A stretch of 51,736 nt of DNA. It comes from Bacilli bacterium (GTDB taxonomy: Bacteria; Bacillota_I; Bacilli_A; RF39; UBA660). The stretch spans positions 1-51,736 of the forward strand of contig JAFRIS010000019.1 in assembly GCA_017432665.1 (NCBI GenBank), given 5' to 3'. Both the position numbers and the translations under genes were made by a program. The notes below the pieces were generated by a model. It did not search any database, was not told the origin of the DNA, and worked only from the letters and a program-made list of their open reading frames with translations. This document shows, piece after piece, positions 3,113-41,027 of this stretch (position 1 is the stretch's first letter; each line of letters starts with the position of its first letter).

Positions 3113-3838
3113 CTACTTTTTATAGATAGTAATTGTTTCAATATAATAATTATCTATTATTTCTTGTTTTTCCTCTAACCATCTATTTCTATCAATAATT
3201 TTTTTCAAAAAATAAAGTCCTATACCATGATTTTTCCCCTTAGTTGTTATTCCTTTTTCAAATCTATTATTAACTATACTACTTCTTTTAAAAGTATTGG
3301 ATATAACTATATTAACTTTATCTTTTAATTCATATATTTCTAGAACAATATTTTTCTTTCTGCTTATTTTAGCTGCATCTATAGCATTATCATATATTAT
3401 TCCTATGACTTTAGTTAAAATAGATATTTGCCTATTATTAAGCTTTTCTATTATGCTTTTATCATTAATATTTATAGATATTTCAACATTAATTTTATTT
3501 TTTTGAGCAACAATAGTTTTATAATAGATAATTCCTTTTAAGGCTCCTTTAGGGAAATCTTTTAGTTTTATAACTATCTCATTATTAATACTAATGTTTT
3601 CATTTATTATCTCTTTAATTTTAGTTTTTACTTCTTTTTCATTTGATAATTCAAATAATACTGCTAATTGATTCTTATATTCATGTCTAATAAATTGTTC
3701 TCTTTCTATCCATTCTCCAAATTTTTGAATATCAACAAGTAACATATTATATTCTTGCGATAATCTATTATATTTATTTCTATAATTAGTATATATTAGC
3801 ACTATAAATACAAGACCAATAATCCTTATTATTAGCAC
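3113..3838 (-). CDS. Orphan single-TM GHKL histidine kinase-like protein (AgrC/ComD-type core)
   Basis: GTG start behind AAGGAG. There is one N-terminal TM helix (IIRIIGLVFIVLIYT). H-box-like FIRHEYKNQL, N-box IIYDNAIDAA and G-box KGKNHGIGLYFLKKI are present. No response regulator is adjacent. Confidence 0.6.
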   Translation of the reverse strand: MLIIRIIGLVFIVLIYTNYRNKYNRLSQEYNMLLVDIQKFGEWIEREQFIRHEYKNQLAVLFELSNEKEVKTKIKEIINENISINNEIVIKLKDFPKGALKGIIYYKTIVAQKNKINVEISININDKSIIEKLNNRQISILTKVIGIIYDNAIDAAKISRKKNIVLEIYELKDKVNIVISNTFKRSSIVNNRFEKGITTKGKNHGIGLYFLKKIIDRNRWLEEKQEIIDNYYIETITIYKK

Positions 3839-3924
3839 TTTACCTATCTCCTTTTTGAGATACGCAATATAATATAAGACTTAAATTATATTCACACATC
3901 TATTATTAGAATATCATTATTTTT

Positions 3925-3954
3925 TGTAAATTAAAAGAACACCTTTGTGTTCTT
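3925..3954 (-). terminator. Intrinsic terminator after tagO
   Basis: Minus strand reads AAGAACAC-AAAG-GTGTTCTT then TTTAATTT. The stem overlaps the tagO stop codon. Confidence 0.7.
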
Positions 3955-5023
3955 AATTTTTATGAAATAATCTTTTCTTTTTGATATTACTTTTATCATA
4001 AATAATAGTAGTATGAAGTACAAACCAAATAACTATGATAAAGATTATAATATATAGAATTTGCCCAATAATTGGATCCTTTAATGTATAGAAAATTGAT
4101 GCCGCTGCGAAAAGAATATTAATTGCATAAATTATTAAAACTGTAGTTCTCTGTGAGAAATTCATTCCTAATAATTGATGATGTAAATGTTCTTTATCTG
4201 CTTTAAACGGCGGTTGTCCTTTTAATAATCTTCTAATAATAGCAAATAATGTATCTAATATTGGTATTCCTAGGATTGTTACTGGCACGAAGAACGATAT
4301 TAAAGCCGGTCCTTTAAACTCTAACAATGTTATTACAGCAATAATAAAGCCTAAGAATGTTACACAGTCACCAGCAAATATCTTAGCTGGATAAAAATTA
4401 TGTACTAAGAAACCTAAAGTAGCTCCTAACATAATTAATGTTAAAACCATAACTAAACTTCCTGCTCTTCCTTGATAGAATCCAATAATGGCAATAGTAA
4501 TAAAGAAAATAGTACATATTCCACCACTTAGTCCATCAAGGCCATCGATTAAGTTAATTATATTAGTACACGCTACAATAAATAAAATTGTAATTGGATA
4601 AGCCAAAATACCGAAATCAAAAGAAAATCCAAAAGCAGTAATATTATTTAATAATATTCCACCATAGAAAACTATTACCATTGCAGCTGCTAAATGTCCT
4701 AGTAATTTATATAAAGCTCTGATTGATCTAATATCATCAATAATACCTGTTAGAATGATAATAAAACTACCTATCAAGATTGAATTCATTCTAATACTTT
4801 GTTCTCCAAAAAGCATATATCCTAATAGAAAAGATAAGAATATTCCTAAAGCTCCTAATTTAGGAGTTATTTTTTTATGAATATGTCTATGACCTTCTTC
4901 AGTTCTAGGTACATCTAAAGCTCCTATATGATTGGCAATTTTTTTCATTAAGAACATGATAGCAGCTGAAAACAAAAAAGTAATTAAAACTATCTTAGAA
5001 GCTGCTAATATTTGTAATTTCAT
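3953..5023 (-). CDS. tagO: Glycosyltransferase family 4, undecaprenyl-phosphate GlcNAc-1-phosphate transferase (TagO/WecA-like)
   Basis: 356-aa polytopic membrane protein with the MraY/WecA motif NLIDGLDGLSGG and a HHxLL segment (KEHLHHQLLGM). Confidence 0.85.
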   Translation of the reverse strand: MKLQILAASKIVLITFLFSAAIMFLMKKIANHIGALDVPRTEEGHRHIHKKITPKLGALGIFLSFLLGYMLFGEQSIRMNSILIGSFIIILTGIIDDIRSIRALYKLLGHLAAAMVIVFYGGILLNNITAFGFSFDFGILAYPITILFIVACTNIINLIDGLDGLSGGICTIFFITIAIIGFYQGRAGSLVMVLTLIMLGATLGFLVHNFYPAKIFAGDCVTFLGFIIAVITLLEFKGPALISFFVPVTILGIPILDTLFAIIRRLLKGQPPFKADKEHLHHQLLGMNFSQRTTVLIIYAINILFAAASIFYTLKDPIIGQILYIIIFIIVIWFVLHTTIIYDKSNIKKKRLFHKN

Positions 5024-6841: not shown

Positions 6842-9800
6842 TTATTTATATAGCCATCTATAAGTTGAACTACATCCTGTGCTTGCTGCACCCCAACCTG
6901 TCCATTGTGAGCCACATGCATATCCACAACAGCCAACATCAGTACACTTAACACTACGCGCTCCAAAATGTTCGTCCCTACACTTTTTACACTTATTTAC
7001 TGTTACTGAACAACAACACCAACAACTATCTGCATATTTACCACAAATAGTACAGCCACTCTTCTTGCATGCTGTATAACTTGCTTTAGTAGTACATTTC
7101 CTTGACGTACTTGATGACATACCACACCACGTACAACTTGTGCCTTCTTTCCATTTTTTCTTCTTTTTACCGCAGCAAGTATTTGTACAAGTAGCAGCAA
7201 CATTCTTCTTAATATATTTATATTGTTTGTATGCCGTTATATTTACTGTACATGTCATAGAATTACCAACATTATCTTTGACCGTATAACTCTTATCTTT
7301 CTTTAATCCTGTATCCTTATGATCACTTCCACCTGGACAAGATACTACTCCTGATCCCCCATGATCACCACAACTATATTTTACCGTTACTCCATCTGTA
7401 GTATTTTGATGTGATTTATCTTTACTACAACTTGGTTTTTGCAAATCAACATAGATTTGAGCAGTGAAAGCAGCACAAGTTCGTACATTATCTGCATTAT
7501 CATAAATATTAAGGGCACCATAGTCTTTAGTTTTATAAGTATGCCCTGATTGAGCAAATGATTCAGAAAAGTAAACAGTTTTTTTACAACCACTATTTTT
7601 TACACTACTTGCAGAATCACGGCATTCACGAGTTATAGTTGTTCCTTTTCTACGCCAACTGCTACTTTGTCCACCTATATAGCAAGTTGGTTTTTTATAA
7701 TCTGAGTGAACTGTTTTATTAGCTGCACAAGTTCGTACATTTCCAGCCAAATCTTTAACAGAACCTCCAGCTCCTAGTCCATCAGCTCCAGCATTACTAA
7801 CATATAATTCTTTGTTATAAGTTCCATTGGATGGACTTCCATATATTGTAGAGAAAGTAGTTCTTCCTGTACATCCACTATTTTTATTTGATGCAGTCTC
7901 TTCACAAGTGGCTGTAACTGTAACTGTTTCTTGATTTCCAGATGAATCAAGTCCTATCCATCCAGCAGAATTTTCTCCTGGTGCAGTTTTTACTACATTA
8001 CATTTAGGCAATGTATAATCTACCCATACCTTTGTTACATCTGAAGGAGTTGATATATTACCAGCATTATCAACTGTTCTAAATGATATTTCATTTTTTC
8101 CTTCCAAATCTGTATTAAATAATATTGATCCTCCATTTTTGTTTGTAACACTTTTTGATGAATCATATTTTGCATCGATAGTATGTTCAAAACGATTCCA
8201 TCCAGACAAGTCTTCATCTAAAGTTTGATCCCATAAATCTGCTCCTCTATCTTTCTTATTGTTGTCACTTATAACAGTAGCAGAAGCAAATTGAACTTTT
8301 GACCAGTTACCACCTGCAGTTGGTGTATAGTTACTATATTCTACTTTAGGTGTCTTTGGCGGAGTTTTATCAATATTAGCTTTTATTCTCAATGTAACTG
8401 TGTTTCCTGCTTTATCTTTAACTGTTAATAATCCTTGTCTTCTTCCTTCTTTATTGAATCCAACTAAAATTACTTTCTTCTTAGTTCCACAGTTTCCCTT
8501 CCATTCTTCTGTTGAAACGGTAGAGGCATATCTATCATAAGCAGTTCCTGTACCTAATGTGCCATACACATCAGTATTAGGATTAGTAACATATGGTACA
8601 TTAGTTTCCCATTTCCAACTATCTAAGTGAATATTATCTGATATTTCTATTTTATAAATTACTCCATTTGGATATCTAGCATTATTCATCCAACCACCAA
8701 TTAAGTTATCATATTCACTAGTTTCTATAGTTCCGGTTCTAGATGAAGTATCATCATTAATTACCAAAGTTCCTTTAGAATAAGTATTTGTTGTATTTTC
8801 CTGTTTTCCATCTGCAGTTGATTTATAAGCTCCTAGAACATTTATTGTAGGTAGAGTTTTATCTACATTAACTTTTACACGACAACTATCTGGTGTAGGA
8901 TCTAAGTCACAAATACTATATTCATCTAATAGACTTCCTTGCAAGTTAAAATTTCCTGCATTATCCTGAACTTGAATATATCCATATTCAGCATCTGGTT
9001 GATGAGTATTTGGCCATGTTCTAGCAAATGTTGGTCTTATACAACCACTTCCATTACCATCATCACAAGTAACAGTTATAGTTCTACTCTTTTCTGGACT
9101 ATCTTTATTAATCCATGTATCTGATTCTCCAACTTTTTTATTAGTACATTTAGGATTATCAGGATCTTTTAATGTTCCTTGAGAAGGTGATTTTTCAATC
9201 ATACAACCTTTTTCATTAGTAACTTCTACTCTTGCACTAATATAGGTAGCAGTTGTAACATCTATATATTCACTAATTGGTCTAGTAACAGTTATATATT
9301 CCTCACCATTACCATTTAAAGCTCCAGAATTATATGCTTCATGTAAATCTGGTTCCCCTTCAGTTTTAACATAAATTGAATAATTATAACTTAAAATTTT
9401 AAGGTCTTCTCCATTTTCATCTTCCCCACCACTTATTTTTATAAATAGTGTTGCTTCTCTAAAATTATTTAACAATATATCACTACTTATTTCTTGTAGA
9501 CTACTATCCGTAAAATATATTTGAGGTTCTGAAGGTTTTGGAGTACATTCTGTCTCTTCAGGTGGTTCACCATCACCATTTACTTCATACTTATAATGAG
9601 TATTTGTTTCTTTAGAAACAACAACATATCCTCCTCTATCTTCTTTAAGATATTTCTTTTCAGCTAAAAATTCCGCAGTTAATGTTACTTTTCCACCAAC
9701 GTTTTTTGGTAAAGCGCTTTTATTAGCTTGCATATAGCTTTCTGCAGCCATTTTTAACGTGTTTTCATACATTTCTTTGTCTTCTTTATCTGCATTATTT

Positions 9801-9898
9801 CTAACATGTGAAACACTAGCGATTGCAATTACGCTTAAAATTCCTAGTATCACTATTGCAGCTAAAAGTTCGATCATTGTAAATCCTTTGTTTTTCAT
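6842..9898 (-). CDS. Giant modular type IV pilin-like protein (prepilin-type N-terminal signal, repeat modules, Cys-rich tail)
   Basis: The N-terminus MKNKG|FTMIELLAAIVILGILSVIAIASV has Gly-1, Phe+1, Glu+5 and a hydrophobic helix. A D-x-[AV]-[GD]-N motif occurs six times. Twenty of the last 115 residues are Cys. Confidence 0.8.
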   Translation of the reverse strand: MKNKGFTMIELLAAIVILGILSVIAIASVSHVRNNADKEDKEMYENTLKMAAESYMQANKSALPKNVGGKVTLTAEFLAEKKYLKEDRGGYVVVSKETNTHYKYEVNGDGEPPEETECTPKPSEPQIYFTDSSLQEISSDILLNNFREATLFIKISGGEDENGEDLKILSYNYSIYVKTEGEPDLHEAYNSGALNGNGEEYITVTRPISEYIDVTTATYISARVEVTNEKGCMIEKSPSQGTLKDPDNPKCTNKKVGESDTWINKDSPEKSRTITVTCDDGNGSGCIRPTFARTWPNTHQPDAEYGYIQVQDNAGNFNLQGSLLDEYSICDLDPTPDSCRVKVNVDKTLPTINVLGAYKSTADGKQENTTNTYSKGTLVINDDTSSRTGTIETSEYDNLIGGWMNNARYPNGVIYKIEISDNIHLDSWKWETNVPYVTNPNTDVYGTLGTGTAYDRYASTVSTEEWKGNCGTKKKVILVGFNKEGRRQGLLTVKDKAGNTVTLRIKANIDKTPPKTPKVEYSNYTPTAGGNWSKVQFASATVISDNNKKDRGADLWDQTLDEDLSGWNRFEHTIDAKYDSSKSVTNKNGGSILFNTDLEGKNEISFRTVDNAGNISTPSDVTKVWVDYTLPKCNVVKTAPGENSAGWIGLDSSGNQETVTVTATCEETASNKNSGCTGRTTFSTIYGSPSNGTYNKELYVSNAGADGLGAGGSVKDLAGNVRTCAANKTVHSDYKKPTCYIGGQSSSWRRKGTTITRECRDSASSVKNSGCKKTVYFSESFAQSGHTYKTKDYGALNIYDNADNVRTCAAFTAQIYVDLQKPSCSKDKSHQNTTDGVTVKYSCGDHGGSGVVSCPGGSDHKDTGLKKDKSYTVKDNVGNSMTCTVNITAYKQYKYIKKNVAATCTNTCCGKKKKKWKEGTSCTWCGMSSSTSRKCTTKASYTACKKSGCTICGKYADSCWCCCSVTVNKCKKCRDEHFGARSVKCTDVGCCGYACGSQWTGWGAASTGCSSTYRWLYK

Positions 9899-30237: not shown

Positions 30238-31338
30238 TTAAACATTAAATCTAAAGTGACAGATATCTCCATCTTGCATTAAATAGTCTTTTCCTTCTAC
30301 TCTAGCCTTTCCTGCTTCTCTTACTTTTAATTCACTGCCAAACTTAATTAAATCCTCATAAGAAATTACTTCAGCGCGAATAAATCCTTTTTCAAAATCA
30401 GTATGAATAATACCTGCACATTCCTTGGCATTCATTCCTTTTTTGAATGTCCAAGCTCTTACTTCATCTTTTCCTACAGTAAAGTAAGTAGCAAGTCCTA
30501 AAATATCATAAGTAGCCTTTATTAATTTATCTAAACCACTACCATCTAAACCCAATCCTTCAAGCATTTCCTGTTTGTCTTCTGGATCTAATTCACTTAA
30601 TTCTTCTTCTACTTTAGCACATAAACTAACTACTCTAGCATTTTCACGAGAAGCGTATTCTTTTACTTTTAAAACATATTCATTATCAGGGTTATCTAAT
30701 TCCTCTTCTTTAATGTTTGCTAGATAGATAATTGGTTTTAAAGTTAAAAAGCTATATGATTTAATAATCTTTTTCTCTTCATCAGATAAATCTAATTGAC
30801 GAAGTGGTTTTTCTTCTTCAAGGGCTTTCTTACACTTTTCTAATACTTCTGTCTCTAAAATATCATCTTTATCTTTGGTAGTTCTAGCCTTTTTAGCAAC
30901 TCTCTCTAATCTACTATTAATAATATCTAAATCTGCGATTGCTAATTCAAGATTAATTGTTTCTATGTCCCTAATTGGATCTATTCCACCTTCTACATGA
31001 ATAATTTTTCCATCATCAAAACATCTTACAACTTCAACAATCGCATCTGTTTCTCTAATATGAGCTAAAAACTTATTACCTAAACCTTCTCCTTTAGATG
31101 CACCTTTTACTAATCCTGCAATATCTGTAAATTCATAAGCAGTTGGGATAAATCTTTCTGGATCATACATTTCTTTTAATTTATCCATTCTTTCATCTGG
31201 TACTGTTACTACTCCTACATTAGGTTCTATCGTTGCGAAAGGATAGTTTTCTGCCAATATCTTCTGATTAGTAATTGCATTAAATAATGTAGACTTTCCT
31301 ACGTTTGGTAAACCTACAATTCCTGCTGTTAAACTCAT
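30238..31338 (-). CDS. ychF: Ribosome-binding ATPase YchF
   Basis: MSLTAGIVGLPNVGKSTLFNAIT and a C-terminal TGS domain YLMQDGDICHFRFNV. The start is set at ATG 31338, and the track's 23-aa extension is rejected. Confidence 0.95.
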   Translation of the reverse strand: MSLTAGIVGLPNVGKSTLFNAITNQKILAENYPFATIEPNVGVVTVPDERMDKLKEMYDPERFIPTAYEFTDIAGLVKGASKGEGLGNKFLAHIRETDAIVEVVRCFDDGKIIHVEGGIDPIRDIETINLELAIADLDIINSRLERVAKKARTTKDKDDILETEVLEKCKKALEEEKPLRQLDLSDEEKKIIKSYSFLTLKPIIYLANIKEEELDNPDNEYVLKVKEYASRENARVVSLCAKVEEELSELDPEDKQEMLEGLGLDGSGLDKLIKATYDILGLATYFTVGKDEVRAWTFKKGMNAKECAGIIHTDFEKGFIRAEVISYEDLIKFGSELKVREAGKARVEGKDYLMQDGDICHFRFNV

Positions 31339-31360
31339 AGTATCCCTCTTTTCTTCACTT

Positions 31361-31369
31361 ATTATAACA
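31361..31369 (-). promoter_or_regulatory. Extended -10 (TGTTATAAT) for ychF
   Basis: Exact TGTTATAAT on the minus strand between the upstream terminator and the GAGGGA SD. Confidence 0.6.
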
Positions 31370-31373
31370 CAAA

Positions 31374-31395
31374 GAAAAAAATACCTAAAGGTATT
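31374..31395 (-). terminator. Intrinsic terminator of the VirD4-like gene
   Basis: Minus strand reads AATACC-TTTA-GGTATT then TTTTTTC, starting at the stop codon. Confidence 0.65.
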
Positions 31396-32749
31396 ATTTT
31401 TCTTCATATATTTTAATTATATTAGTTTCTCTTACAGGAATTGTTGCCTTTTTTGCTTCATAGCCCCAATCTATTTCATAATCTGGTAACAGTTTAGTTT
31501 TAAAAGGCATCATTCTTGGTAGTAAGATAATTGCCGAAAAAATACTAAGTGTTTTTAATTCAGAAACTGAAATTAACGGTTCTTCTTTGTTGTTTACTAT
31601 ATGTGTTCCACAATTTTTAGATATTTCTTCTAATGTATAGATATCATTTGATAACAAATAAATAGTATTTCCAAAGCACATCTTTAATATTTCTACATCT
31701 TCTTTGGAATACATATTTGCTAGGTGTACAAAGCTTTGAATAGCAACTGTAACTCTGATATTTATCGATCTACAGTATCCTAATTTTAGAGCAAAGTCTT
31801 TAATAGGTATCAAAGAATCGAATTCATCTAATAATAAGTTTAATCTCTTTTCTTTATTACCATATAAAGATACTGCATCTATTACTTGATTAGCAAATAA
31901 AGGTATTAAATTACGGCAAAAACTACTAACACCAGTCACAATAAAGATAGCTGTCTTATCATTACTTATTGTAGACATTTCAAAATCACTAGTTGAAAGC
32001 ATATTAGCTAAGTTTTCTTTAGATAAATATCTCTCAATTTTTTGATTAAATACTGAAATGATACTTCCTCTAGTTTCAGGTGGAGCTTGCAATGTTCCTG
32101 CTAATTTCATGAACATTACAGGATCTTTTTCTACTTTCTTTAAGAATTGTTCACTAGAAGTTTTATCCAATAATGCATTAGCTAGTTTTGCAACGCTATT
32201 TAAATTAATTTCCTCTTCTTTAGCAGTTTTAAATAAATATAATACTATTCCAGTAAAATAATTTATTGATGAATTAACCCAAAAAGGATCTGCTTCACTC
32301 TTTTGTGCTTCTGCAAGTAAATAATATCCTAAGTCTTCAATTAACTCTATTGCTTTATCAGGATTTCCTTCTTTATATTGTTTGTGAGCTAAAGTTAGAG
32401 GATTCCAATTATTTCCTTTACGTGAATCTTCAAAATCAATTACGATATTTTTATAACCTTCATCTTCTAATTTTTGAGCTGTTTTTTCATAAATTTCACC
32501 TTTAGGATCATTTATTACTATTGATTCTCCTGCCATCATAGCTAACTTTAAGATTGGCAAAATGACAGCTTGTGTCTTTCCACTACCTGTACTACCTATC
32601 AACAAATTGTGTGCCTCATAAGTATCTATGTATAAATACTTATCATCATACATTACAGGTAATCCAGATTTTTCTACTCCTGTTTCTAGATTTACCGCTA
32701 CTGTTTTTTTCTGAATATGTTCTCTAGTTGCCCATTCAGAATAACTCAT
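31394..32749 (-). CDS. TM-less VirD4/TraG-family (type IV coupling protein-like) ATPase
   Basis: Walker A LIGSTGSGKTQAVILP, Walker B RLNLLLDEFDSL, and DPFWVNSSINYFTG. The hydrophilic N-terminus MSYSEWATREHIQKK has no TM helices. The start is set at ATG 32749 behind GGAGGGAAG. Confidence 0.7.
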   Translation of the reverse strand: MSYSEWATREHIQKKTVAVNLETGVEKSGLPVMYDDKYLYIDTYEAHNLLIGSTGSGKTQAVILPILKLAMMAGESIVINDPKGEIYEKTAQKLEDEGYKNIVIDFEDSRKGNNWNPLTLAHKQYKEGNPDKAIELIEDLGYYLLAEAQKSEADPFWVNSSINYFTGIVLYLFKTAKEEEINLNSVAKLANALLDKTSSEQFLKKVEKDPVMFMKLAGTLQAPPETRGSIISVFNQKIERYLSKENLANMLSTSDFEMSTISNDKTAIFIVTGVSSFCRNLIPLFANQVIDAVSLYGNKEKRLNLLLDEFDSLIPIKDFALKLGYCRSINIRVTVAIQSFVHLANMYSKEDVEILKMCFGNTIYLLSNDIYTLEEISKNCGTHIVNNKEEPLISVSELKTLSIFSAIILLPRMMPFKTKLLPDYEIDWGYEAKKATIPVRETNIIKIYEEK

Positions 32750-32818
32750 ACTCTTCCCTCCTTCTGACATTATTAAATCACAAAAAATTACATACTATTT
32801 AAACAATAACGACTTTTG

Positions 32819-32827
32819 TGTTATAAT
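32819..32827 (+). promoter_or_regulatory. Extended -10 (TGTTATAAT) for the AraC-type gene
   Basis: Exact TGTTATAAT on the plus strand. The GGTGA SD is at 32834-32838 and the ATG at 32843. Confidence 0.6.
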
Positions 32828-32842
32828 TGACTTGGTGATATT

Positions 32843-33310
32843 ATGTTTTCTAATGATCTCATAATAAAAATTATTAATTATCTTGATAATAACTTATATA
32901 AAAAAGTCTCTATTGATGAATTAACTAGAATCTTTCACTATAATAAAGATTATATTATGAGACTATTTAAGCGGGAAATTGGTTTTACTATTGTTCAATA
33001 TGTTAATAATAAGAGAATCTATAATTCTCTACCAGCTTTTAATAGTAAAGATTTATCTATTTTAAATATTTCAATTAATTATGGGTTTTATTCTCAAGAA
33101 TACTATTGTGAAATTTTTCATAAAGTTATTGGAGTCCCTCCTTCTACTTATTACAAATTCATTAATCTAAATCATGATATTTCCGAGAAAGACATTTCTT
33201 TAATTCAGTTTAATGTTGCTTTATTAGAGTACAAATTCCGTAGAATTAATGAATATCTTAATAATATTCCCCCTAAAAGTACTATTAAAGTATTATCAGT
33301 ATTCAAATAA
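32843..33310 (+). CDS. AraC/XylS-type HTH regulator, DNA-binding domain only
   Basis: 155 aa containing VSIDELTRIFHYNKDYIMRLFKREIGFTIVQYVNNKRI...GFYSQEYYCEIFHKVIGVPPSTY (two HTH units). There is no ligand-binding domain. Confidence 0.8.
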   Translation: MFSNDLIIKIINYLDNNLYKKVSIDELTRIFHYNKDYIMRLFKREIGFTIVQYVNNKRIYNSLPAFNSKDLSILNISINYGFYSQEYYCEIFHKVIGVPPSTYYKFINLNHDISEKDISLIQFNVALLEYKFRRINEYLNNIPPKSTIKVLSVFK

Positions 33311-33333
33311 AAAACACCCTTTGGTGTTTTTAT
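33309..33333. terminator. Bidirectional terminator between convergent AraC-type and abgT genes
   Basis: AAAACACC-CTTT-GGTGTTTT then TAT. Confidence 0.75.
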
Positions 33334-39059: not shown

Positions 39060-39356
39060 TTACTTATTATCTTTGTTTTCTAATATTTCAGTTATTTTAT
39101 CAACTAAATCACATAAAGATGTTTGAATAGAACTTGCATAAACTACAACTGCTTCTACAAAATCTTCTTCTGATTCTTTATTTTTTTGTCCTTCTAAGAC
39201 ATCTTTTGTAATAATCATTTCATTTGCGCAACCGAGTTCAATACACATAGCATTAGTTAAACCAGTTATTATTTTTAGTTGTTCTAAGGCTATTTCTTTT
39301 TTTTCTTTTAATGAATTTTCTTTAAATTGTTCCATATATTGATTAAATTCTTTCAT
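39060..39356 (-). CDS. Hypothetical 98-aa acidic helical protein
   Basis: ATG at 39356 behind AGGTGA, 10 nt after the stop of the upstream gene. I recognise no motif. It has 3 Cys and no TM helix. Confidence 0.5.
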   Translation of the reverse strand: MKEFNQYMEQFKENSLKEKKEIALEQLKIITGLTNAMCIELGCANEMIITKDVLEGQKNKESEEDFVEAVVVYASSIQTSLCDLVDKITEILENKDNK

Positions 39357-39365
39357 ATTTTTCAC

Positions 39366-40970
39366 CTATTTAAACATTCCTTTTAATTCTTCTTGTTCTG
39401 ATTTTGATAATTCTGCTTTATCCATTAGCATTAAATATCTTGCCCATTTCCCAGTAACTTTGGCCATAGCTTTTTGAACTTCAGATAATCCATATACTTT
39501 TTTCTTAGCACTTGCTTTGGCATCATGTGTTGCTTGAAGTTCTTTTCCTTTTCCTTGTAAATCAAATTCCTGTTCTAACTTAGCCCAAGGTGAAAATCTT
39601 GCGTGTTCTCCCAAAAAATCATTACAAATAGCTACTAGTTTTTTTTCCATTTCTTTATTTCGTTTTTCCTTGTCAGGTCCTGTTAAATCATACATAGATT
39701 TTTCCTTATTATGTTCTTCTAATCTTCCTAATATTACATTTGCAAAACAAATTTGTAGCTTTTCTAATCTTTCTGATTTATTCTGATGATAATTTTCTGG
39801 TAAAGAAGATTCTGAATAATATTTTTCTTCTTTTGCTTTTATTCCGCGATATAAAATTGCTATATCTTCAACAGACATTAATCTTGTTGCAATATGAACT
39901 CTCTTCCTATAATTATCTATTTCACCGTTTTTATCATAACTATTTAAAAGTTTTTGACTTACTATCTTATTTATTGTGTTTTTTATTAGTTCTGGAGAAG
40001 CTATACTGGCTCCAAAATTTAGTACATAATCTTCATTTTTCTTTATTACAGAATCAACATTTCTTTTTTGTTCTGCACTTAAATTTCCATAGTATGCCAT
40101 AAATCTAGCATATGCTTGTTGGTATTTTGCTAAACTGTTTTTTATTCCTATTCTTTGAAACAATTCTGGATTTTTACCAGGTTCACTATATAATAACTCT
40201 CTAACTATCACATCAACAGTTAATAATCCCATATTCATAATATCAGTAGCTTGAATATTTTCTCTATTAGAATAATTCTCTATTTGTAATCCTCTATCTA
40301 AAACAGTTGCTGTATAGTAATATCCTGACTTAGAAAGTTCTGGATATACTTCACAAATCAGTTTTTTTTCATCATCAGTTAATCCCCATAATGTTGCTTT
40401 TTTATGAATGTGTTCTTCAATTATCTTATCTACTTCTTTTTTCTTTTCTTCTGGTGTTTGCTTTTTTAGTGGTTCTGAATTTATTACTTTTTTTTGTTTT
40501 GCATCTTCTGTTTTTTTCTGTTCATAAGCTTCTGTTATTTCTTTTGATCTTTCCCTATTTAGATTTTCAATTTGTATTTTAGCAGAGATATAACTATTCA
40601 TAGCTGATTTTAAAGTTCCAAATGTGTCATTTGCAATTCTATCTACAATTTTTTCGTGTTTTTCTCTATCCATCCTTACCATAAAAAGTTTTTGATGTTG
40701 CTTCAATATATCGCTAACCATTTCATAAGAAGGGGTTCTTGGTCTTTTATATTTTTCTACTTCTGTTATTATCTTATTTCTTATAATTCTTGCTTGTTGA
40801 TTGTCTACCTTACTCATTTGAGTTATTTTTGAACTTATTTTTTCTCTTTGTTTTTCTTTATCGAATTTTAATAAAGCTACACATGTTCTTATAATTAACA
40901 TGGCTAATTGCTTTTCTTTATCATATTTGGCGTATTCTTTATTGTAAAATTCATCACCTTTATACATATA
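39366..40970 (-). CDS. Hypothetical 534-aa Lys/Glu-rich cytoplasmic protein
   Basis: ATG at 40970 behind GAGGTGG (MYKGDEFYNKEYAKYDKEKQ...). It is a long uninterrupted ORF in AT-rich DNA with no TM helix, no signal peptide and no motif I recognise. Confidence 0.55.
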   Translation of the reverse strand, partial: YMYKGDEFYNKEYAKYDKEKQLAMLIIRTCVALLKFDKEKQREKISSKITQMSKVDNQQARIIRNKIITEVEKYKRPRTPSYEMVSDILKQHQKLFMVRMDREKHEKIVDRIANDTFGTLKSAMNSYISAKIQIENLNRERSKEITEAYEQKKTEDAKQKKVINSEPLKKQTPEEKKKEVDKIIEEHIHKKATLWGLTDDEKKLICEVYPELSKSGYYYTATVLDRGLQIENYSNRENIQATDIMNMGLLTVDVIVRELLYSEPGKNPELFQRIGIKNSLAKYQQAYARFMAYYGNLSAEQKRNVDSVIKKNEDYVLNFGASIASPELIKNTINKIVSQKLLNSYDKNGEIDNYRKRVHIATRLMSVEDIAILYRGIKAKEEKYYSESSLPENYHQNKSERLEKLQICFANVILGRLEEHNKEKSMYDLTGPDKEKRNKEMEKKLVAICNDFLGEHARFSPWAKLEQEFDLQGKGKELQATHDAKASAKKKVYGLSEVQKAMAKVTGKWARYLMLMDKAELSKSEQEELKGMFK

Positions 40971-40986
40971 AACCACCTCTATTATG

Positions 40987-40995
40987 ATTATAGCA
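40987..40995 (-). promoter_or_regulatory. Extended -10 (TGCTATAAT) for the 534-aa/98-aa cassette
   Basis: Exact TGCTATAAT on the minus strand, in the 57-nt gap after the rsmG stop. Confidence 0.6.
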
Positions 40996-41027
40996 TTATT
41001 TTCTTTTGATACAAAGAAAAACAAGTA

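Follow-up and report, generated by a model that had tools for sequence, protein, structure and literature searches.

The 51,736-nucleotide contig JAFRIS010000019.1 of a Bacilli bacterium of the RF39 lineage (assembly GCA_017432665.1; this whole stretch is called the window below) carries, between abgT and ychF, two divergently oriented genes, one coding for an ATPase related to type IV coupling proteins (T4CPs) and the other for a small AraC-type protein, hereafter mini-AraC. Coupling proteins are usually viewed as membrane-anchored gatekeepers that are encoded together with a secretion machine and a relaxase. The initial annotation, made from the sequence of the window, had described the ATPase as an orphan T4CP that lacks transmembrane (TM) helices, has its own terminator, sits in the core chromosome and is paired with a DNA-binding-domain-only regulator. 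Our analyses indicated that the two genes form a real, widespread and uncharacterised module that likely serves a known type IV secretion system (T4SS) pathway. The coordinates of all features are given in Table 1.

The ATPase and its MarA-like partner

Analysis of the 451-residue ATPase sequence revealed matches to three Pfam families of T4CPs, T4SS-DNA_transf (6.8e-48), TrwB_AAD_bind (9e-20) and TraG-D_C (1.1e-14), and the top NCBIfam model was the VirD4-like NF045973 conju_CD1115 (2.9e-61, 207.7 bits). The protein carries Walker A LIGSTGSGKTQAVILP, Walker B RLNLLLDEFDSL and, in addition, DPFWVNSSINYFTG, the key residues of which are invariant across homologues; GSTGSGKTQ and LLDEFD are invariant, and the protein has a RecA-like nucleotide-binding domain (NBD) with Walker motifs of the FtsK/HerA-related type. 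The AlphaFold2 (AF2) model is globular (pLDDT 92.4) and shows an all-alpha domain inserted in the NBD as a helical block of about residues 119-250, in agreement with the TrwB_AAD_bind match. The best whole-length fold matches in the Protein Data Bank (PDB) were Cagbeta (8DOL) and TrwB-deltaN70, with TM-scores of about 0.7, and HerA and VirB4 ranked lower. Searching the PDB with the ATPase sequence returned TrwB as the sole match, a weak one.

No TM helix was found in the ATPase. The highest 19-residue Kyte-Doolittle mean was 1.94 and fell on a buried helix just past the P-loop, the hydropathy scan revealed no hydrophobic segment ahead of the P-loop, and the N-terminus is not extended in any of about 120 close homologues. 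Hydropathy, the AF2 model and the homologues thus agree with the earlier description of the protein as TM-less, and the Pfam families and fold matches with its description as a T4CP. The ATPase consists of an NBD and an all-alpha domain, is equivalent to TrwB-deltaN70, and has neither a transmembrane domain (TMD) nor a C-terminal extension. It genuinely belongs to the VirD4/TrwB family and is TM-less.

The longest reading frame at the locus (31394-32770) would code for 458 residues. The N-terminal pattern M-x-Y-x-x-W is kept in all homologues, M1 and W6 being invariant or nearly so. Because of this conservation, of a ribosome binding site (RBS) 6 nt upstream and of the position of the other ATG within the predicted -10 and transcription start site (TSS) region, the ATG at 32749 was taken as the true start and the 458-residue version was ruled out.

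The divergent 155-residue protein contains helix-turn-helix (HTH) domains only, as had been annotated, with matches to Pfam HTH_18 (1.3e-10) and also to HTH_AraC. The NCBIfam models ramA_TF, SoxS and MarA matched at 1e-11 to 6e-16, all below their cutoffs, and in a profile search of PDB sequences the closest solved relatives, matching over residues 1-106, were MarA (1BL0, 8e-17) and SoxS (1.3e-16) together with RamA and Rob. Seven helices were observed in the AF2 model, with two HTH motifs within residues 5-107. The domain of about 100 residues, without a ligand or dimerisation domain, corresponds to the architecture of the MarA/SoxS/Rob subgroup; MarA, SoxS, RamA and the N-terminal part of Rob represent monomeric activators made up of the DNA-binding domain only. 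To this fold the mini-AraC adds a C-terminal part of about 50 residues, made of a long helix (115-140) and a tail that is disordered in the model yet conserved in sequence, ending in ..K.LS(I/V)FK.

In PADLOC-DB v2 the ATPase matched only mad8 (5.7e-8, 30.6 bits) and, weakly, a HerA P-loop, which gives no credible defence assignment; the mini-AraC had no match in that database, and the MADS preprint contained nothing useful on mad8. A 217-nt contig of the bovine metatranscriptome run X26 aligned with 32228-32443 of the window at a depth of 7.3 and with 5 differences. This single contig from a true metatranscriptome, the other candidate RNA runs being ambiguous, is weak evidence and hints at transcription in the rumen of the ATPase gene or of one closely related to it.

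A conserved box in the intergenic region

Alignment of 49 intergenic regions, each anchored on its only TTGTTTAA, revealed a 20-bp box with the pattern AAAAG[TC]C[GA]TT[AT]TTGTTTAA[AG]. It was found in all 49 regions, with C-5, TT and TTGTTTAA invariant, while the A+T-rich surroundings are free to vary. The distance from the box to the ATPase gene is constant and that to the mini-AraC start varies by 17-24 nt among lineages. At all loci a predicted extended -10 (TGnT[A/T]TAAT) occupies a fixed place relative to the TTGTTT in the box, at +26 to +34, and the RBS offset is constant as well, AAGGAGG standing at the same distance from the ATPase start in the 49 loci. The consensus promoter scan skipped this -10, the hexamer of the window having T at its position 2. 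No properly spaced -35 hexamer accompanies it, and the centre of the box falls at about -42 relative to the predicted TSS. On the other strand, the -35-like TTTAAA of the mini-AraC promoter (32798-32803) falls within the box, and the extended -10 reported earlier for this gene is the best promoter-like site of the region.

The window contains one perfect copy of the box and one match with 2 mismatches, which is within chance. Among the 251 loci fetched (about 3 Mb) the box was present at every listed site of the module type and in just one place besides. It is retained next to ATPase homologues of 30-37% identity, and in relatives with the two genes in tandem a box-like sequence precedes the ATPase gene in L254 and the AraC gene in L253. 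On the simplest reading of these sequences, the MarA-like protein would use the box as its operator; the position is the one expected if it activates the ATPase promoter in class II fashion, and it could also regulate itself from there.

The terminator that the initial annotation had assigned to the ATPase gene was not borne out. The hairpin past its stop codon is weak and indistinguishable from chance, 37 of 200 shuffled sequences folding equally well, and it was not called by the terminator scan; the clear terminator is the one shared by the convergent mini-AraC and abgT genes. The longest open reading frame (ORF) of ychF (30238-31407, minus strand) overlaps the 3' end of the ATPase gene, and the conserved YchF start (MSLTAGIVGLPNVGKST) corresponds to the ATG at 31338. 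Downstream of the weak hairpin ychF has its own promoter of the TGTGTTATAAT type and a GAGGG RBS, and therefore read-through from the ATPase gene is not required.

Table 1. Positions of the genes and of the predicted signals of the module in the window.
Feature	Position	Strand	Evidence or remark
Soluble T4CP-like ATPase gene, 451 aa	31394..32749 (stop included)	-	ORF, Pfam/NCBIfam, homologue alignment, AF2
MarA/SoxS-like mini-AraC gene, 155 aa	32843..33310	+ (divergent from ATPase gene)	Pfam, profile, AF2
ATPase RBS, AGGAGGG(A)	32756..32763	-	Read from sequence, 6 nt upstream of ATG 32749
Predicted ATPase extended -10, TGATTTAAT	32772..32780	-	Fixed offset from the box in the 49 aligned regions
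Conserved 20-bp box, AAAAGTCGTTATTGTTTAAA (family consensus AAAAGYCRTTWTTGTTTAAR)	32798..32817	-	Putative MarA-like operator; overlaps -35 region of mini-AraC promoter
Mini-AraC extended -10, TGTTATAAT	32819..32827	+	Best promoter-like site of the region, 10/12 with TG
Intrinsic terminator hairpin, convergent mini-AraC gene and abgT	33310..33331	Both genes	9-bp stem; only terminator-like site of the region
Weak A+T-rich hairpin and T-run past ATPase stop	31374..31395	-	-5.3 kcal/mol, z -0.88

Distribution, gene order and selection

A scan of species-representative genomes yielded at least 525 relatives of the ATPase, and the best 80, which were examined, fell into two groups, A and B. In the protein databases the family comprises more than 120 clusters of 54-100% identity, all of 436-457 residues; it amounts to about 40 clusters at 50% identity and to at least 52 species, with members down to 30% identity.

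Group A (52 non-redundant loci, at least 43% identity) carries the short soluble ATPase. A mini-AraC gene of about 155 codons lies directly upstream and divergent in 51 of the 52 loci, the exception being a contig end, while abgT adjoins the pair in 8. No third conserved gene was found within five genes on either side of the pair, and the pair is bordered by housekeeping genes that are unrelated, for instance those for GltX, Lon, trigger factor, sortase/adhesin and acetate kinase. The slot between abgT and ychF is confined to the closest relatives, in which it is syntenic across 10 related species with YchF 90-99% identical. The conserved synteny next to ychF suggested in the initial annotation holds for these species; elsewhere the flanks vary and only the pair is constant.

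Three deeper homologues from a library clustered at 50% (37%, 37% and 30% identity) have the same divergent mini-AraC gene. In three basal homologues, TM-less and of 456-534 residues, the pair is in tandem, the ATPase gene being followed directly by an AraC gene for 149-184 residues (L252:5001-7221, L253:3478-5670, L254:5001-6834). The tandem pair lies downstream of RNase HII (minus strand), cvpA, rsmE, an unknown gene and a miaB-like radical-SAM gene, and the AraC tails of this lineage differ, being long and charged in L252 and L253. The view of the AraC-type protein as a dedicated partner is supported by its adjacency in 51 of 52 loci and six deep homologues, in two gene orders, and by the operator-like box.

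Group B (31 loci, 40-43% identity) consists of T4CPs of 650-880 residues that have two TM helices at the N-terminus and are extended considerably at the C-terminus. These genes have neither an AraC neighbour nor a box and form an operon with genes for a VirB6-like protein, a cell-wall hydrolase and a VirB4 of the Mbov_0397 family, the last of which is split; a group B T4CP scores 296.6 on conju_CD1115 and passes its cutoff of 250. The closest plasmid T4CPs are merely 27-30% identical to the ATPase of the window.

The neighbour-joining (NJ) tree showed that the AraC-paired soluble ATPases, the tandem forms included, are one clade, separate from group B, in 253 of 267 bootstraps (95%). A narrower clade seen in the first NJ tree was rejected, its bootstrap support being about 0-27%. 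Many remoter long relatives in the protein library are also without predicted N-terminal TM helices. One of them, P0205, lies outside the clade and has no AraC neighbour; it is the sole context examined and showed no T4SS inside 4 kb, and we do not claim that the long TM-less relatives are T4CPs of integrative and conjugative elements (ICEs).

For close pairs dN/dS was 0.08-0.15 for the ATPase gene, 0.15-0.25 for the mini-AraC gene, 0.05-0.14 for abgT and 0.02-0.05 for ychF. The ATPase value is comparable to those of the neighbouring abgT and mscS, and its dS resembles that of its neighbours. Both genes are functional and under purifying selection, with no decay; the initial annotation had considered that the ATPase could be a fragment of a normal T4CP, and the intact motifs and low dN/dS speak for a whole gene. 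The module is ancient and spread in uncultured A+T-rich gut and rumen Bacilli, in ordinary chromosomal contexts.

The order of identities differs between the two proteins. The mini-AraC of the window is 66% identical to that of its closest relative L001 (9440-9907) and 72% to that of the more distant L002 (9439-9906), and the ATPase shows the opposite order, 89% with L001 and 70% with L002. This discordance could be due to a rate change or to recombination inside the module. All module hosts are uncultured metagenome-assembled genomes (MAGs); the clade includes circular ones, such as OZ006970.1. Module or T4SS contigs L014, L018, L039, L053-L055 and L124/L198 are labelled Muribaculaceae, Methanobacteriaceae or Acidaminococcus fermentans, most likely through errors of MAG binning or labelling.

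Type IV secretion loci in related genomes

A profile of the group B VirB4 detected at least 548 species, the best 80 sharing 77-98% identity, and at least 80 more with 82-100% identity were obtained when the query was the VirB4 of RUG12586, a relative that shares the ychF synteny of the window. Matching of assembly accessions across the scans indicated that, of the 52 assemblies with the module, at least 14 have a T4SS VirB4 on another contig, a lower bound because each scan listed its best 80 loci and MAGs are incomplete; they include four of the 10 relatives with the abgT-ychF slot (L005, L006, L009 and L017). Each T4SS locus with enough flank, also in module-bearing genomes, has its own long T4CP of 685-881 residues about 3 kb downstream of VirB4. 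Since the T4SS locus of the relatives has its own anchored T4CP, the soluble ATPase is in this clade an additional paralogue and not a lone survivor. The term orphan, which the initial annotation itself would have given up for a T4SS elsewhere in the genome, is accordingly not tenable at the genome level in the relatives, at least 14 of 52 holding a VirB4/VirB6/Tad-like T4SS with a canonical T4CP.

The T4SS locus of about 20 kb is syntenic over all of the 21.8 kb fetched in at least 56 species (L169-L248, for example L171:25-20146; also L054 and L056-L086). It is detectable in at least 520-548 species, and its VirB4 is 77-100% identical between species, being conserved like housekeeping genes. 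The gene order is RcpC/CpaB-like, CpaF-type ATPase, two unknown genes, T4SS-pilin-like, VirB6-like, VirB3/4, SpoIID-type hydrolase, two-TM T4CP, DUF6273 and RmuC; no relaxase was seen in the scanned parts of the locus. The VirB4 homologue is divided over two adjacent ORFs in every one of 56 loci (about 185 and 596 residues; L074:2540-3136 and 3136-4920), the first covering positions 98-276 of the Mbov_0397-type model and the second 295-891. The split is probably real and not an assembly error, because it is conserved. A similar arrangement of Tad-like genes, CD1115-type T4CP and VirB6 occurs on a Terrisporobacter plasmid. The locus may be a chromosomal machine for DNA exchange or uptake, or a very successful ICE.

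Surroundings of the module in the window

The window is origin-proximal core chromosome with a G+C content of 28%, and matching DNA was found in bovine, sheep and goat gut metagenomes. The module lies about 15 kb from dnaA. Other genes of the window are dnaA, dnaN, mnmE, mnmG, rsmG, two of parB type, parA, mscS, abgT, ychF and a Cu-oxidase_4 family gene; the rpsF-ssb-rpsR region and genes for a DHH phosphoesterase, an M23 peptidase and RF-1, with dnaB and prmC; and genes for ArgRS, a MurA-like protein, FBA, Pta and MreB. The housekeeping flanks near the origin and the inheritance of the abgT-ychF slot in the closest relatives agree with the core-chromosome setting proposed earlier. The accompanying statement that T4SS and mobile-element genes are missing nearby stands in so far as no tRNA was found in the window, no VirB4 or VirB6 was detected there by hidden Markov models, and the about 40 larger ORFs covered by the Pfam scan are all housekeeping; the small ORFs were scanned in part.

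Two ORFs of 552 residues (highly charged, helical-looking) and 101 residues at 39060-41024 (minus strand), between rsmG and a noc-like parB gene, have no Pfam or PADLOC family; they look like a lineage-specific insertion, because they are absent from that place in the related loci L001-L005. A 1018-residue protein is encoded at 6842-9898 (minus strand). Its sole family match is an N-terminal N_methyl prepilin motif (7.6e-7), by which it may be a giant protein of the pilin or pseudopilin kind.

Possible roles of the module

The reading that we prefer, and to which we give an even chance, is that the module supplies a separately regulated soluble T4CP paralogue which, with its DNA-binding partner, acts on the resident T4SS pathway. 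The MarA-like protein would bind the box as a monomer and, from about -42, activate the ATPase promoter with its extended -10 and no -35, and the position of the box over its own promoter would let it set its own level in loci of the window type. The resulting ATPase would be a cytoplasmic NTPase that keeps the all-alpha domain for substrate docking intact but has no anchor and no C-terminal adaptor tail. It may act on the resident T4SS by pre-engaging or handing over DNA or protein substrates; alternatively, it may compete or co-assemble with the anchored T4CP and in this way gate transfer. By analogy with TraM-TraD and TrwA-TrwB, the DNA-binding adaptor and the motor might act together, with the tail of the mini-AraC as a candidate contact. 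Such a contact is possible because the two genes stay adjacent even where they no longer share a promoter region, and because the tail, though disordered, is conserved; the survival of adjacency through the change from divergent to tandem order suggests that the two proteins probably also act together physically.

The significance of the module lies in a whole T4CP clade that is pared to a soluble motor and tied to a MarA-like protein and a near-invariant putative operator. Its hosts are abundant uncultured Bacilli of the gut and rumen that also keep a conserved Tad-like/T4SS locus, and if the soluble paralogue gates or redirects this T4SS, a new layer of control on DNA exchange in gut communities would be added. 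The small size of the module, its easily expressed parts and the predicted operator provide an experimental handle.

Several observations weigh against a role in the T4SS pathway. The module is not linked to T4SS genes within 8-10 kb (0 VirB4 matches in 763 kb, and no VirB4 or VirB6 match in the window and the 52 loci), and the T4SS loci do not carry the box (about 160 loci gave 1 match, probably by chance), so that there is no sign of co-regulation. The score of the ATPase, 207.7 bits, lies below the curated equivalog cutoff of conju_CD1115 (250; NCBIfam NF045973). Within-group identity is 0.50 for the soluble ATPase and 0.72 for the anchored T4CP; the soluble protein evolves faster, which would fit a T4SS-independent role too. 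The nearest relatives, CADBCT01 and DFEZ01, are not among the VirB4 matches listed (80 loci per scan, from about 600 candidate stretches), which, with incomplete MAGs, neither shows nor excludes that VirB4 is absent from them. Promoter, TSS and activator geometry are sequence predictions, and the functional link between ATPase and T4SS rests only on homology and on the lower-bound co-occurrence in 14 of 52 assemblies.

These points lend weight to a domesticated motor independent of any T4SS, which we regard as a real though minority possibility. This is the reading of the initial annotation, which had suggested DNA uptake or export, defence sensing or chromosome handling as roles. The ATPase and the MarA-like protein would then be an autonomous cytoplasmic system, whether an adaptor-directed ATPase, an ATPase controlling a transcription factor or a sensor or defence device, and the co-occurrence with a T4SS would reflect shared ancestry. 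The absence of linkage to T4SS genes in the 52 loci (763 kb), the T4SS loci without box, the faster divergence of the ATPase relative to its anchored paralogue and its score below the CD1115 cutoff are all expected from such a system, as is the loss of TMD and C-terminal extension, the two parts through which a T4CP is held to its machine and to its adaptors. Adjacency to the mini-AraC gene in two gene orders suggests that the two partners are sufficient; the closest relatives of the window are not among the VirB4 matches listed, which may or may not point the same way, the MAGs being incomplete. However, a T4SS is present in at least 14 of the 52 genomes with the module, the all-alpha docking domain and the catalytic motifs are kept in the form typical of T4CPs, and the only defence match is a weak and generic one to a P-loop, with flanks of housekeeping genes and not of defence islands. 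An independent motor would be a new case in which the cell has taken over a conjugation protein for a task of its own.

A more specific proposal, which we consider unlikely, is that the MarA-like protein at the box, about 15 kb from oriC here, loads or controls the ATPase through its tail, the two forming a sequence-directed DNA motor. If true, the box would be a relaxase-independent launch site for export of chromosomal DNA via the resident T4SS, or the pair a T4SS-independent machine for DNA handling or for remodelling of a transcription factor; in either event a transcription factor-like adaptor would have gained its enzymatic partner from a coupling protein put to new use.

It is very unlikely that the module is a minimal mobilisation cassette or the remnant of an integrative and mobilisable element (IME), whose own T4CP hijacks the resident T4SS with the mini-AraC as accessory protein in DNA processing and the box as part of an oriT-like site. 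IME-encoded T4CPs are known, the genes around the pair vary greatly from lineage to lineage, and many hosts offer a resident T4SS; the use of DNA-binding accessory proteins by T4CPs in relaxosomes (PMC12857230) would also suit the proposal. On the other hand, relaxase, integrase, transposase and tRNA are absent beside the pair, and the 52 loci share no third gene in the five positions on each side. The single abgT-ychF slot of the closest lineage fits vertical descent, the dS of the pair is like that of its neighbours, and the tandem lineage is likewise fixed beside rsmE and the miaB-like gene.

That the adjacency is incidental, the mini-AraC regulating abgT (its other neighbour in the window) or other neighbouring genes, or that the ATPase is a decayed T4CP fragment, is scarcely credible: abgT neighbours the pair in 8 of 52 loci and the ATPase gene neighbours the mini-AraC gene in 51, the spacing of the box is fixed to the ATPase start and not to abgT, abgT and the mini-AraC gene converge on a common terminator, and decay is contradicted by the uniform length of more than 120 homologues, the conserved N-terminus, the intact motifs, a dN/dS of 0.08-0.15 and the lack of an upstream TM-coding remnant, since the 93-bp intergenic region holds promoters.

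Comparison with known systems

Comparison with VirD4/TrwB/Cagbeta (1E9R/1E9S/1GL7 and 8DOL) indicated the same fold over 451 residues, with Foldseek E values of 9e-20 to 1e-14 and TM-scores of about 0.65-0.72, and the engineered soluble fragment of TrwB equals the ATPase of the window in length. Unlike these proteins, the ATPase has no TMD or C-terminal extension, is not encoded with VirB or relaxase genes and is paired with a MarA-like gene; it is just 16-18% identical to the solved T4CPs. The group B T4CPs are closer, being 40-43% identical to it over the full core and sharing the bacterial group and often the genome. Alignment with these anchored forms revealed that the M-x-Y-S-R-W-A of the ATPase corresponds to ...G-Y-S-R-W-A just past their TM2.

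The mini-AraC shares the two-HTH DNA-binding domain of about 100 residues with MarA, SoxS, RamA and the N-terminal part of Rob, and differs from them by its C-terminal helix and tail. Class II marbox promoters have a single asymmetric site of about 20 bp that abuts or overlaps the -35, an arrangement which the box of the module resembles; its sequence is not that of a marbox. Within the DNA searched, the apparent target of the mini-AraC is its own two-gene module.

T4CPs work with DNA-binding accessory proteins in relaxosomes, small partners being TraM for TraD and TrwA for TrwB (PMC12857230), and CagZ is an inhibitory small partner of Cagbeta (title of 8DOL). None of these partners is of the AraC type, and the analogy with the module may serve as a lead only.

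TraJ of pIP501 is a TMD-less T4CP of a Gram-positive system, for which the small TM protein TraI has been proposed as membrane tether (PMC12857230). It is encoded in a tra operon beside its proposed anchor and a relaxase, whereas the ATPase loci have no conserved small TM gene and no tra genes nearby. In the literature on orphan, soluble or TM-less T4CPs, on VirD4-like defence and on RF39/RFN20 secretion no account of the module was found, and TraJ/TraI was the sole precedent that came up. The absence of TM helices, which the initial annotation had taken as unusual, is real here and less exceptional than it had appeared, given TraJ and the many remoter long relatives that are also TM-less. TM-less T4CPs are thus already known, inside tra operons; for an ATPase of the T4CP kind that has a MarA-like partner of its own and an operator, no description was found. 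Because the ATPase has no TMD, is not linked to a T4SS and scores below the CD1115 cutoff, it was classified as a distinct, AraC-associated soluble branch of the T4CP family and not as a coupling protein of conjugation.

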